From contig JBNJGH010000004.1 in the NCBI GenBank assembly GCA_051747585.1, positions 6,852 to 70,851 of the forward strand: 64,000 bases of DNA. Reading direction: 5' to 3'. The stretch is from Candidatus Rifleibacteriota bacterium. Its GTDB lineage: Bacteria; Muiribacteriota; Ozemobacteria; Ozemobacterales; Ozemobacteraceae. This document shows positions 6,001 to 15,000 of this stretch, one piece after another; position 1 is the stretch's first letter, and every line of letters begins with the position of its first letter. Made by a program: the position numbers.

Positions 6001-9000
6001 TATCTGTAAAGGTATTCTATACCATACAAAATTTAATAGCAAGGATTTAATCGTAGTTATGGGATTTTTTTACGGGAAACTTGAAAAATCAAGCAAATTT
6101 TGCTGGCTTACAATATTGATTATCACTTTTTTACATATCAATTCTTACAGTTTACATGGAATGACTCTCAAAATATGGGATTTTCCCAGATGGCTTGAAG
6201 GAGAAGAAAAGGTGGACCGCTTTTCCTGGATTGGCAAAAAAATCAAAGAATTTGAGCAAAATAATCCCGGAATCAAAGTAGAACTAACTAAACTGACCTG
6301 GTCGAGAGGGCATGAAAAACTTAAAATTGCTGCTCTTGGCGGCAACAATCCCGACATAGCACCCGGAACAATCCCTCTATTATTTATTAAAGAAAATCTC
6401 ATTCAACCAATAAATGAATTTTTAAGCGATAAAGATAAAAAAGATTATCTTCCGGCAGCCCTGGGGGCATTTACCTACGAAAATAAACTGTATGGCTGGC
6501 CATGGTATATGAGTGGGCAACTTTTGTTTATCAATAATGATCTCTTCAAGGATGCAAGAGTAAGACCTCCAAAAAATGGCACCTGGACCAACAAAGAATT
6601 TGTCCAGAAAATGTCGCAAATAAAAAAATATATCGATAACACAAACAAAGATGGTATTCCTCTTTCTCAGCAAGGTTATTATCCCCTGGGAATGTATTTT
6701 CAAAAAAATGAAACGGCCAATTTCCCTTTTTTAATGTCATATGGCGGAAGATTTATATCAGATGATCAGAAGTTTGTTGGCGATCAACCTGCAATGCTCA
6801 AAGGTTTCGCCTGGCTCGAAGAATTGAAGAAAAATGGAATTATTCCTCCTGACAGTGGCGGAAGAACTATGCAGGATATCTGGACCGCCTTTGCCCGTGA
6901 ACATCGAGTAGCAGCTTCCGCTTTTGGCTTATGGGGCATTAAAGGCTTGACGCAAAAGTATCCCATGAATTTTTCCATCGTCAACTATCCTGCTGCTGAA
7001 GGCGTTGAAAGCCAACCTTTTGTCGCCATTTCGGGCTTTTATGTTTTTAAAAACAAAAATAAAGAACGAGTAAAAATGGCAATGAAACTTGCACGTTTTT
7101 TAACTTCAGGCGAGCAGCAAAAAGCACTTGAAAAGTATTCTCAATTTCCTACCAGACTAAGTACCGGAAACATTTACGAAGGTGACCCTCACATGTCTGA
7201 CGCCTTAAAGATATTTCAAAAGGGGCGAACGGTATTTAATGACAGTCGTTGGCCTCAAATTGACGAAGAAATCGAGTATGGAATTCAAAGAACTCTGCTT
7301 GGTCGCACCACCGCCAAAGAAGCTATGAATCGCGCCAGGAAATCAGTAAAAAGAGTTCTCAGCGCTCAATCGGGCTCAATCAAAGAAGACCTCAACAAAG
7401 GCAGCATGTTCGGGCGTATAGTACTTTTTCTTGCCTTTCTCGCTATAATTTTTGCTTTTTTCAGCAAACAAACACATTTAATAATGATTGTGCCCGCTCT
7501 TTCAATTATTGGGCTCTTTTTGTTTTATCCTCTTGCAGATGCTTTTATTATAGCTTTCAGGAACTACAGAATCGGAGAAGTTGGTGGGTTCACTGTGGCA
7601 AACTTCACTCGAGCTTTAACCGATCCCAAATTTACCAGGGCATGTTTTAATACAGTGCTGTATAGCTGCGTTGTAGTGCCCGCAAACACTTTTACCGCCT
7701 TAATTGTTGCCAGCCTTATTTATGCTCTGCACGGCAGAGCCAAGTCTTTTTTCAGAGGAGCTTATTATCTTCCCGGCGTTGCTTCAGTGGTCGTTCTTAC
7801 CATGGTCTGGCGCTGGATATTTAACACTGAAGTCGGACTTGCCAACTCTATCCTGAGATGGTTTGAATTTCAACCGGTTGGCTGGCTGACTGACCCCGAT
7901 ATAGCATTCTGGTCGGTTATCGCCACCGGTGTTTTTAAGTCACCCGGTGGAGCAATGCTTATTTATCTTGCCTCAATGGCCAATATACCTGGTTCGCTAT
8001 ATGAATCAGCTGAACTTGAGGGTGCCGGGCCATTTGCCAAATGGTGGCATATTACTGTGCCACTTCTGCGCGGCACTACCAGCTTTTTAATGATTACCGG
8101 CACCATAACCGCATTACAGGTTTTTGCTCAGGTATTAATGCTTACCGATGGGGGGCCGGGTATTTCGACAGAAGTTGTGGTTCATCGTGTTTATACATCA
8201 GCCTTCAGAGATTTTGATTTTGGTTTGTCTGCAGCAATGGCACTAATTCTATTTCTGGCAATTCTATTGATAACTATTTTTCAACGCAAATTCACCAATA
8301 AAGAAGTGGAGTATCTGGCATGAAAAAGTTAAATACAGCACAAAAAATTTCTTTGTTAATACTTTTTCTCGGACTTATACCCACAGCCGGTCCACTTGTA
8401 TGGATGGTGTTCACTTCTTTTGTGTCGCCAGAGGCTCTTACCGCAAATCCGCCGCAATATAACAGCTTTTCGCTTGAAAACTATGCGGTATTGCTCTCAT
8501 CGGGCAGTATAGTTCGCTGGGCTTTTAATTCATTTGTGGTGGCAGCAGCAGTAACCATTGCCCAAACAATTTTTAACTCGCTTGCCGCTTTTGGTTTTTC
8601 TACCGGCCAGTTCAAAGGCAGAGAAAAACTTTTCTGGGTTCTTCTGGCCGCCATGATGGTTCCAGGGCAAATTGTAATGTTGCCTATGTTCTTATTCATG
8701 TCTAAATGGAATCTGATCGACAGTTTGTGGGCTGTAATATTGCCTGCTATGGCCGCGCCATTTGGTATTTACATGATAAGGCAATATATGGACTCTATAC
8801 CCAGGACGCTTTCGCAGGCAGCCCAAATGGATGGAGCAACCGACTTTCAAATATTCCGTCACATATATTTTCCCCTTTCAATGCCAATTATGGCGACCTC
8901 CGGAATTTTTATATTTATCACTCAATGGAATTCATTCTTATGGCCTCTGGTAACTTTAAACACTGAAAAATACTATACTCTGACGGTAGGGCTCTCTACT

Positions 9001-12000: not shown

Positions 12001-15000
12001 CACTTCGGCAAACCATAATATATGGACTTCTAACCCCAACCCTCATCTGCAGGGAGTTTTTGACACTGTAAAGAAACAACGACTCAACCTTAAAGACGAA
12101 GAACAGGTAGAAAAGTTTATCTTGAATCCGCCCGAGTGCTGGTGCGGTTTTGAAGGTATCGAGGGCTCAAGCAAGTTCAGATGGATAAAAAAAATCAATG
12201 CTGCCAACTGGAAAAAGATAGAGAAAAAAATTGACCTGGGCAAAATAAAAGAAATCAATTTATTCGAGCGAGATGTATCGGGTCGCATCATAAGCCTCAA
12301 GGCAACCGGGGAAAAAGGCAGCAAAAGAATAATGAAAGAACTTAAAATCAGACGCATTTTTAACAATCTTAAAAGTTCATGCTTTATTGTTGAATTTAAC
12401 AAAGATTCTAAAGGTTTTATCAAGTCTGCTACCTTTAAAGGTGCGGGCTGGGGTCATGGTGTAGGCATGTGCCAAACCGGAGCTCAAAGCATGGCAACTA
12501 AAGGCAGAACTTTTAAACAGATACTTTTACATTATTTTCCCGGTGCAAATATACGCAAACTTTATTAATTTAAATCGTTTTATTTAACTTTGCCGCATGC
12601 TTTTCAAGGTTTGTTTCAAGTGGTAAAATAACAACATGTTAAAGAACAAAACAAAGTTTATGCTTACAACTTTTGGCTGCCAGATGAACCAGGCCGACGC
12701 TCAGCGAATCAATGGAATTCTGGCATCAATGGGCTACGAGCAAACCGACAACGAAAAAGAAGCTCAACTTATACTTTTCAATACATGCTGCGTAAGACAG
12801 CATGCGGAACAGAGACTGATCAGCAGAATACAGGCCCTGACCGCAGAAAAGAAAAAACGGCCCGACCTTTTAATTGGCGTTTCAGGCTGCATGGCTCAAG
12901 AGCACCAACAAAAACTCCTCAATATGCTTCCACTGGTTGACCTTGTTTTTGGCCCAAATGACATCGAAGAGTTGCCTTTACTCTTACAACGAGCAAAAAA
13001 CGAAAAAACTCTGGGCAACTTTACCAGTAAAGGCGCCTTTGATGGAGAATCTGCCGAAGGCATTATTCTCAATCGTCCCTTTTCGGCAATGGTTAATATT
13101 ATCAGGGGCTGCACCAACTTCTGCTCGTATTGCATAGTTCCTTATGTGCGTGGACCTGAGGTAAGCCGACCACTCGATGAACTTACCGACTTTATTGGCG
13201 AACTTGCCCGGCATGGAGTTAAAGAAATAACACTACTCGGACAGAATGTTAATGCCTATGGCAAAGATATTGGCCTGCAAGAAGGCTTCGCCACTCTTTT
13301 AGAAGAGATAGAAAAAATTGACGGCATCAAATGGGTAAGATTTATGACCTCTCATCCGCGAGATTTTTCTAAAGAAACAATCAGAAGAATATCTCAACTT
13401 TCAAAAGTTTGTGAGCACTATCATCTACCTGTTCAAGCAGGCTCAAATAAAATATTGAAAAAAATGAAACGTGGCTATACAAGAGAAGAATATATTGATT
13501 TAATCCAGTTTGTACGTGATTCAATAAAAGACGCCTGTATAACCACCGATATAATTTGTGGCTTCCCGGGTGAAAGCGAAGAAGACTTTGAACAAACTCT
13601 TTCGCTGGTAAAAAAAATACGCTATGAATCTGCCTTCATGTATTATTATTCACCTCGCGAAGGCACAAAAGCTGCCGAAATGACAGACCAGATCCCCGAA
13701 AAAATCAGAAAAGAGCGTCTAAGCCGGCTTATCGACATTCAAAATAACATTGCCCTCGAAGATAGTCAGAAATTGCTGCACAAAGAATTTGAAGTTCTGG
13801 TAGATAACGTTTCTTCTAAAATCAAGGGTCATGTTGCCGGGAAAACAAGAACCGGAAGAGTTGTAGATTTTGCTGGTTCTCCTGATCTTATCGGCGAATT
13901 TGTGCGCGTTAAAATTGAAAAGGCCCGAATCTGGACACTGTCAGGCACAATGATCCAGGGAAGTGAAAAAAAATGAGCATTCTTGTTCACGCCTGCTGTG
14001 GCCCATGCCTTGGCGGTTCGATCGACACTTTAAAAGAAGCTGCAAAAACCGAAAAAATTGAAACATTCTGGTTTAACCCCAATATTCACCCATACCTGGA
14101 ATATAGAGACAGAATGCTTTCTTTTCGGAAGATTTGTTCAGATCTTAAACTTAAAATGCATTCTGCTATGACAGAATATGGCCTGCAAGCTTTTCTGACA
14201 GAAACTAAAAATGATTTTAGCGAAGCCAGATGTGCTAAGTGCTATAAATTAAGACTTGAAGCTGCTGCAGCCTTTGCCGCAAAGAACTCTTTTTCTGCCT
14301 TTACGACTACTTTGCTGATCTCTCCACACCAGAACCACAATCTTATAGTTAAAACCGCTCAACAGGCTGCCGAAAAATTCAATACCCGATTTTTGTATTT
14401 AGACTTCAGACCGGACTTCAAAAAAACTTATGAAGCCATACGCAAACACGAACTTTATAAACAAAGGTATTGTGGCTGTATTTTCAGTGAGTATGTCCGT
14501 TTTCAGAATGACAAAAGATATAAATTACCTGAAATATAAAAAAACTAAATCCCAAAAAAGCCGAATTACGTTTTACCATTTAAAGAACTCGGAGAATTAA
14601 CAGTGCAAATAAATTTTAACAGCTCAGCTAAGACCCGAACAAAAAAAGGCCTTATAGTTTTGCTGTGTGTGTTTTTTGCATGCCTTATATTGAGCTCTAA
14701 ATTACATGCAGGCCGTGAACCGAAACTTAAAGTAAAATTAGGTGGTCTTCATAAAAAAATCTCTATTACTGCTAAAAAAACAGGAGTTGTCAAAAACTCC
14801 GGAGGCCGAAGAATTCAATCATTCAGAGGAAGCAGAAACTTCAGCTGGAATTTGCCATCGAACCGCCGGCGGGTTCGCTATAACAAACAAACTCTTGAAT
14901 TTTCCAGTCGCGATAATATTTTAGATTTTAACGGCAACAAATATCGGGGCAAACTCCTGATAACCTTCACCAAAAAAGGTGCAAAAGTAGTTAATCACCT

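Follow-up and report, generated by a model that had tools for sequence, protein, structure and literature searches.

A predicted recycling operon for peptidoglycan sugars in Riflebacteria, combining a SPOR-bearing SpoIID enzyme with a fused sugar-type ABC importer

We examined a 64,000-nucleotide stretch (here called the window) from a Candidatus Rifleibacteriota bacterium, covering positions 6,852 to 70,851 of the forward strand of contig JBNJGH010000004.1 (C4 in our numbering; assembly GCA_051747585.1), and found five consecutive genes that probably form a module for the recycling of peptidoglycan sugars. A SpoIID/LytB enzyme carrying a SPOR domain would cut the cell's own wall, an ATP-binding cassette (ABC) importer energised in trans would bring in the products, and cytoplasmic enzymes would convert these to N-acetylglucosamine 6-phosphate (GlcNAc-6-P). 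This reading draws on family profiles, fold comparisons and gene order. The source is a 4.1-Mb metagenome-assembled genome (MAG) of 330 contigs, 93.55% complete; among named organisms, Candidatus Ozemobacter and further Riflebacteria are its nearest kin.

The N-acetylmuramic acid (MurNAc) 6-phosphate etherase MurQ scores 358.9 bits against TIGR00274 (cut-off 302), spanning profile positions 2-290 of 291, and matches the solved MurQ entries 4lzj/1nri over its full length at 293.9 bits. It has the SIS fold, and its stretches LDASECPPTFG and VEGAEDN are identical to solved MurQ in the alignment; the two glutamates in these stretches we take to be active-site residues, following work on E. coli MurQ. 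Other enzymes of the pathway are encoded elsewhere: AnmK on contig C61 (290 bits), NagZ on C149 (GH3; NF003740 at 212 bits against a cut-off of 207; cytoplasmic, with no signal peptide), NagA at a contig end, and NagB on C30 (TIGR00502, 307 bits). A preliminary description of this DNA had left the handling of anhydro sugars unexplained and had proposed a genome search for the missing enzymes and transporters. AnmK and NagZ are indeed not in the window, and the copies on other contigs close that gap; genome searches also found no AmpG (TIGR00901) and no phosphotransferase system (PTS) EIIC in this 93.55%-complete MAG. MurA is present (584 bits), so the organism makes its own MurNAc; a MurNAc auxotrophy of the Tannerella type was rejected for this reason.

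The importer is encoded by two genes. The 754-aa product of the first matches PF13416 (SBP_bac_8, 105 bits) and PF01547 (SBP_bac_1, 79 bits), then PF00528 (BPD_transp_1), with UgpA/GlcT/MalF-like models in NCBIfam. By hydropathy, an N-terminal signal/anchor segment (aa 14-32) precedes a binding domain (roughly aa 35-445), after which an additional membrane helix (aa 450-468) leads the chain back into the cytoplasm ahead of the permease (aa 474-754). This fusion of solute-binding protein (SBP) and permease is one uninterrupted open reading frame (ORF) in more than 20 related genomes. The second permease is GlcU/MalG/UgpE-like (PF00528, 63.9 bits), and the pair has the composition of a CUT1-type system, namely a family-1 binding protein with two different permeases of the MalF/MalG type. 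ORF and family searches of the window found no ABC ATPase in the cluster. Two MalK-type ATPases with the OB_MalK domain are encoded on C224 and C143, each beside other CUT1 systems, and sharing of an ATPase in trans is known for MsiK and MsmX. The importer would thus have to borrow an ATPase encoded elsewhere, and the operon is not self-contained, as it had at first been called; AnmK, NagZ, NagA and NagB are also on other contigs.

The fusion itself is a lineage habit rather than a mark of wall recycling, because a second fused paralogue of 754 aa, about 24-27% identical (C110; L100:566-5698), is encoded together with its partner permease and a CBM9-containing protein that resembles glucoamylase. 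In other phyla (Chloroflexota, Bacillota, Thermotogota) the fused relatives had no MurQ, BadF kinase or SpoIID nearby, so they are uninformative on cargo. Binding domains are likewise covalently tethered to the translocator in OpuA and GlnPQ (PMC7673798, PMC8025302). Those systems belong to betaine and amino-acid families, whereas here a family-1 sugar SBP stands N-terminal to a MalF/UgpA-type permease and is joined to it via the extra membrane helix.

The last of the five products scores 180 bits against TIGR02669 (cut-off 83.3). An AlphaFold model built on 16 orthologues, with a predicted local distance difference test score (pLDDT) of 82.8, matches C. difficile SpoIID 5i1t with Z 17.1 and a root-mean-square deviation (rmsd) of 3.2 A over 255 aligned residues. 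E251, in VPSEIS, is aligned to the Glu of GVLAGEMS in the C. difficile enzyme and is invariant in the 16 sequences; E88 of B. subtilis SpoIID is the essential catalytic Glu (PMC6635528). The first 243 aa gave no Pfam match at E up to 0.01. In fold comparisons aa 80-168 matched the solved SPOR domains of DedD (Z 7.3), CwlC (7.3), RlpA with denuded glycan (6.5) and DamX (5.7), with unrelated ferredoxin-like folds at 4.0 or below, and PF05036 is in the precomputed annotation of five SpoIID orthologues (P0004, P0010, P0034, P0076, P0100). Judged by the model, the inserted domain is a SPOR domain.

SPOR domains bind amidase-stripped (denuded) glycan, mostly at the septum (PMC6895207). The domain therefore indicates the septal wall of the cell itself and not foreign cells. 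Together with a Sec signal alone and a diderm cell (the window contains pilQ and flagellar genes), it makes the cell's own wall the most likely target of the predicted enzyme; of the two sources of fragments first suggested, own wall or foreign cells, the latter is the less likely. The SPOR domain also fits a peptide-free substrate and an importer of the sugar type rather than the peptide type, and it fits the three Amidase_3 proteins of the genome, which has one Amidase_2 as well. One of the three, an Amidase_3 domain of the AmiA/B/C type at about 38427-39011 of the window (C4:45278-45862) within a 545-aa open frame, is a candidate producer of the denuded glycan that the SPOR domain would read. 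SpoIID of B. subtilis is a lytic transglycosylase, and the Waddlia homologue is a muramidase that gives mainly non-anhydro products on denuded glycan (PMC6635528). The release of an anhydro-disaccharide, originally given as established for SpoIID enzymes, is so only in part, agreeing with the first of these enzymes and not with the second, and the type of product cannot be assumed here. Either product could be managed by the predicted enzymes, with AnmK for anhydro ends and the MurK-like kinase for reducing MurNAc.

The kinase matches PF01869 (BcrAD_BadFG) at 55 bits (cut-off 31.5), and its best solved relative by sequence is C. acetobutylicum MurK (CaMurK, 8zo3; E 1.3e-14). The kinase model (pLDDT 92.9) matches CaMurK with Z 29.5 and rmsd 2.8 A over 298 aligned residues; it is followed by the hexokinase of S. 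tokodaii, human NagK and the Tannerella MurK/K1058 pair (Z 22.5-27 for all of these, 22.5-26.6 for human NagK and the Tannerella pair), with ROK kinases and others at 18.4 or below. Among the motifs retained are D8xGGT, the catalytic D99, GTGS119-122 and GGWG, and D8, G10, G11, D99, G119, T120 and G121 are invariant in 14 kinase sequences; the roles of these ASKHA motifs are described in PMC10465942. The canonical G-D-[ED]-G-S sugar loop (GDEGSG) is absent, the loop in the window kinase reading GGWGYLFDSAPSG. Across the Ozemobacteraceae (family f1) LLDxxPSG replaces GDEGSG, while family f3 retains SDPGS; since the change is conserved, it is not decay. In Tannerella forsythia MurK (TfMurK) the loop Asp D141 binds the sugar C1-OH (PMC10465942), and by offset from that paper's G145/P134 equivalence it corresponds to D152 of human NagK. 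The subfamily is essentially confined to Riflebacteria, with scores of at least 90 bits inside the group and about 50 bits outside it. We predict from the sequence that the kinase phosphorylates GlcNAc and/or MurNAc. Family profiles and structure matches thus bear out the first assignments of MurQ, the BadF-type kinase, SpoIID/LytB and the ABC importer.

Some 15 Riflebacteria contigs share this gene order, including a divergent TPR gene upstream, with protein identities of 29-88%. The contigs stem from different assemblies and different studies, and the recurrence of the order argues that the adjacency is not chance. Within the Ozemobacteraceae identities are 55-88% for the importer proteins, 53-78% for MurQ, 42-64% for SpoIID and 29-45% for the kinase; the second permease is 65-88% identical in the loci of this family (one partial match at a contig end, 55%) and 42% identical in family f3. 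The latter, a second family in the phylum, retains the fused SBP-permease, the permease, the BadF kinase and MurQ at 34-45% identity without SpoIID, and in a third family (f8) the permease, MurQ and SpoIID are neighbours. Among 41 related genomes MurQ was present in all 26 that have an importer orthologue, and the importer in none of the 12 MurQ-negative ones; the counts are from kin genomes and are supportive, not a statistical test. AnmK occurrence tracks the same families. The functional linkage of the genes, as first suggested, is upheld by the conserved synteny and by the restriction of the importer to MurQ-positive genomes. The row is made of two separable modules, importer-kinase and MurQ-SpoIID, that recur side by side, and the TPR gene stays as a neighbour even where the importer-kinase module is missing. 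The modules are reshuffled within the phylum: of two rumen Riflebacteria contigs, L126 has the order MurQ, permease 2, kinase and L128 the order permease 2, kinase, MurQ.

From these identities a route can be proposed. Periplasmic amidases would strip the stem peptides, and the SPOR-SpoIID/LytB enzyme would dock on the resulting peptide-free glycan, mainly of the cell's own septal wall, and cut from it small saccharides without peptide, for example GlcNAc-(anh)MurNAc (that is, with MurNAc or its anhydro form) or short oligomers. The membrane-tethered binding domain would catch these, and the two-permease CUT1-type importer would pump them in, energised in trans by an ATPase of the MalK/MsiK type encoded elsewhere. 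In the cytoplasm NagZ would split the disaccharide and AnmK would turn anhMurNAc into MurNAc-6-P; the operon kinase would phosphorylate GlcNAc and/or MurNAc, and MurQ would convert MurNAc-6-P to GlcNAc-6-P and D-lactate. NagA and NagB would then pass the product to glycolysis or back into wall synthesis. The cargo is probably peptide-free, because the glycan cutter of the operon is a SPOR-SpoIID, and a disaccharide is slightly favoured over free MurNAc or GlcNAc.

Direct reading of the junctions confirms the layout first described, five genes with overlapping stops and starts (Table 1). The co-directional ORFs at 6059-12568 overlap by 4, 4, 8 and 8 bases. Junctions 8320/8323 and 9132/9135 are ATGA overlaps, and the 8-base overlaps at 10075/10082 and 10991/10998 are the identical string ATGAATAA, made up of the ATG start, an asparagine codon and the TAA stop of the upstream gene. 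Alternative upstream starts exist at 5903 for the first gene and at 10943 for the SpoIID gene. The start at 5903 was rejected in favour of 6059 because it collides with the divergent TPR gene, and it is also disfavoured by orthologue alignments, which begin at or shortly after the Met at 6059.

Table 1. Features of the predicted operon and its surroundings (window coordinates)
Feature	Coordinates	Strand	Basis
Fused solute-binding protein and MalF/UgpA-type permease, 754 aa	6059..8323	+	Pfam/NCBIfam
Second permease, MalG/UgpE/GlcU-like, of the CUT1-type ABC importer	8320..9135	+	PF00528, NCBIfam
BadF/NagK/MurK-type ASKHA sugar kinase	9132..10082	+	PF01869
MurQ, N-acetylmuramic acid 6-phosphate etherase	10075..10998	+	TIGR00274
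SpoIID/LytB glycan-cleaving enzyme (predicted), 525 aa, signal peptide and inserted SPOR domain	10991..12568	+	TIGR02669, model
SPOR-like domain, aa 80-168 of the SpoIID protein	11228..11494	+	Fold comparison
TPR protein, divergent from the operon (context)	5097..5915	-	Conserved neighbour
MiaB-like and QueH genes (context)	12636..14539	+	Family profiles
Second SpoIID/LytB paralogue (context)	14603..16057	+	PF08486 98 bits; TIGR02669 219 bits; synteny in relatives

Promoter and terminator scans gave counts at chance level, with no terminator after 12568. The gap between the SpoIID stop and the MiaB-like gene is 67 bases (12568-12636), and no terminator-like site was found in it. The MiaB, QueH and second SpoIID genes may share the operon transcript; this mix of tRNA-modification and wall genes is conserved in relatives. 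On the other side a strong bidirectional terminator-like hairpin at 5038-5074 (15 pairs, with A9 and T9 flanks) separates a 574-aa TPR gene from a convergent 272-aa TPR gene. An Rfam scan of 4800-16200 gave nothing in the operon, and the sub-threshold matches (ohsC, leader peptides), confined to 5038-5074, are probably spurious.

Several observations weigh against the recycling module as proposed. AnmK and NagZ are not linked to the operon. Genomes L127 and L123 hold TPR, MurQ, SpoIID and MiaB without importer or kinase, and in genus g9 an unrelated ABC-F gene comes after the importer-kinase pair and MurQ is encoded at another place. The best solved relative of the binding domain is 5ci5 (a family-1 SBP, 79 bits), followed by binders of maltose and other sugars, which does not indicate the cargo. 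In this kinase subfamily the Asp that binds C1-OH in MurK and NagK sits one position earlier, and given this shift the substrate may differ from GlcNAc or MurNAc. AmpG-like genes of the major facilitator superfamily (MFS) occur in 13 of 24 genomes of the same family, two congeners included, and true AmpG is found in family f3; 11 of the genomes concerned also carry the operon. The ABC system is thus not simply a replacement for AmpG, and such a replacement as a general rule was rejected because of this coexistence in 11 relatives; the absence of AmpG here could reflect a gap in the MAG, as congeners have AmpG-like genes. In the preliminary description, glycan fragments free of peptide come in through an ABC system rather than AmpG or PTS. 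The SPOR domain on SpoIID and the lack of AmpG and PTS EIIC hits in this MAG speak for that entry route, and "rather than AmpG" is too strong, since AmpG-like genes accompany the operon in relatives.

A narrower proposal, which we put forward only tentatively, is that the CUT1 system with its fused SBP specialises in importing peptide-free muro-saccharides (GlcNAc-(anh)MurNAc or short pieces of denuded glycan) made at the septum by SPOR-SpoIID, accompanied by a lineage-specific kinase whose shifted C1-OH-binding Asp reflects an unusual substrate. If true, AmpG, Opp/MppA, YejBEF-YepA, MurP and MurT would be joined by another class of permease for peptidoglycan recycling, and the unusual kinase substrate might be, for instance, a glycoside instead of a free reducing sugar.

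The genes could also serve scavenging as in Tannerella, the ABC importer taking up free environmental MurNAc (and GlcNAc), the kinase acting as a MurK that supplies MurQ directly with MurNAc-6-P, and SpoIID being a housekeeping division neighbour. The murTKQ logic is established (PMC5790795), and importer and kinase always occur together, as expected if the cargo is the direct substrate of the kinase. The best solved relative of the kinase is the C. acetobutylicum MurNAc/GlcNAc kinase; moreover, the residue preceding its catalytic Asp is small (P/T/S) in most orthologues and its GGWG loop is without a bulky residue, MurNAc-specific TfMurK having T94 in place of Asn at the former position (PMC10465942). 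However, the presence of MurA means no auxotrophy, no exo-muramidase or secreted glucosaminidase is linked, and the MurQ-SpoIID adjacency exceeds chance persistence across three families. CUT1 systems, moreover, carry di- or oligosaccharides more often. We regard scavenging of free MurNAc as unlikely.

Rather less probable still is an amino-sugar catabolic cluster, with a general importer for GlcNAc or chitobiose, a kinase of the NagK type, and MurQ serving only MurNAc-6-P that AnmK derives from material imported otherwise. The sole NCBIfam match of the kinase is the GlcNAc kinase model, far below its cut-off, and such a cluster would suit the separation of importer-kinase from MurQ in genus g9, the AmpG-like genes of relatives and the location of NagB in another locus. 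Against it, the importer orthologue occurs only in MurQ-positive genomes, its linkage to MurQ is retained in two families at low identity, and the row contains no chitinase or GH20/GH18 gene. That the genes lie together without functional coupling, through mis-assembly or neutral gene order, we consider very improbable: the genome is a MAG in 330 contigs and neither promoter nor terminator scans rose above chance, but the same order recurs in many independent assemblies from different studies, and the stop and start codons overlap. Recycling of the cell's own wall sugars remains the reading we prefer.

The closest described arrangement is that of T. forsythia, where Tanf_08345-08385 comprise gtf, gtf, lytB, ampG, ybbC, murT, murK and murQ (PMC5388701, PMC5790795). 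The genes lytB-ampG-ybbC-murT-murK-murQ are on one transcript, and lytB is annotated as an "amidase enhancer" with the SpoIID/LytB label (PMC5388701). As predicted for our operon, LytB, wall-sugar transporters, a kinase of the NagK/MurK group and MurQ are in one transcription unit. The Tannerella transporters are AmpG (MFS) and MurT (a sodium-solute symporter), whereas the importer here is of the ABC type; unlike this genome with its MurA, Tannerella is auxotrophic for MurNAc; and the glycosyltransferases of the Tannerella operon have no counterpart in ours. TfMurK is only a distant structural relative of the window kinase (Z 22.5-24.6, 15% identity). The E. coli pathway of AmpG, NagZ, AnmK and MurQ (with NagK and NagA) is shared to the extent that NagZ, AnmK, MurQ and NagA are all in this genome and the end product would be GlcNAc-6-P. 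It differs in that searches of this MAG yielded no AmpG, the kinase belongs to the BadF type and is not a ROK NagK, the operon cutter is a SPOR-SpoIID, and the genes are split between the operon and scattered loci.

MurQ adjoins BadF kinases in Thermotogota and Clostridia as well. In a Clostridiales MAG (L146:6114-14514; JAGZDD010000002.1) the genes for MurR, MurQ, an SBP, a pair of permeases, one BadF and one ROK kinase and a GH4 glycosidase form a row, which may include a 6-phospho-glycosidase step. This row resembles the window operon in placing a BadF-type kinase next to MurQ and a CUT1-type ABC system, and CaMurK is the best match of the window kinase in sequence and structure. In contrast to the window operon, its binding protein is a separate gene with no detectable similarity to the window SBP, and it has MurR and no SpoIID, the window operon lacking MurR. 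The window kinase has LLDxxPSG in place of GDEGSG. P. aeruginosa RlpA is a lytic transglycosylase with a SPOR domain and is specific for denuded glycan (PMC6895207). RlpA and our predicted enzyme would both join a glycan-cleaving domain to a SPOR domain that reads peptide-free glycan, implying septal action after the amidases; RlpA has a DPBB catalytic domain, a C-terminal SPOR and no sugar-catabolic operon, whereas here the catalytic domain is SpoIID/LytB and the SPOR lies near the N-terminus. In Agrobacterium YejBEF-YepA is an ABC route for muropeptide recycling (PMC9790009), an ABC importer with the purpose proposed here, in a bacterium without AmpG. YejBEF-YepA is of the peptide/opine type and takes peptide-bearing muropeptides, whereas the importer here is a sugar-type CUT1 system that has a fused SBP and lacks its own ATPase.

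In total, five SpoIID paralogues are encoded in this genome. One of them, 44% identical to the operon SpoIID over its full length, is in a second locus on C30 (L180:2401-8120), which consists of NagB (2401-3183, -), the SpoIID paralogue (3708-5300, +), a sodium:solute symporter (SSF; 5423-6949, +) and Amidase_2 (7053-8120, -). Tannerella MurT is in the same transporter superfamily as this symporter (PMC5790795), and the locus may provide a second route of uptake, in parallel, through a MurT-like symporter. Twice in this organism, then, a SpoIID-type enzyme has a sugar transporter and an enzyme of amino-sugar catabolism as neighbours.

Described routes for the uptake of wall fragments are AmpG, Opp/MppA, YejBEF-YepA, the PTS permeases MurP and NagE, and the symporter MurT; our literature search turned up no ABC importer of the sugar type that has been characterised for wall sugars, the one ABC route described, YejBEF-YepA, being a peptide-type system (PMC9790009). 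The operon follows the known logic of these pathways and does not overturn it, and what is new is an ABC-fed variant, not a new kind of system. Its conserved kinase variant is useful for studying sugar recognition in the NagK/MurK group. Recurrence of the operon across a candidate phylum, together with the unfused look-alikes in Clostridiales, makes it a concrete candidate, open to experiment, for an ABC route of the sugar type in wall recycling, one that would tie the uptake route to a defined producer, the SPOR-targeted SpoIID predicted to act on peptide-free glycan.

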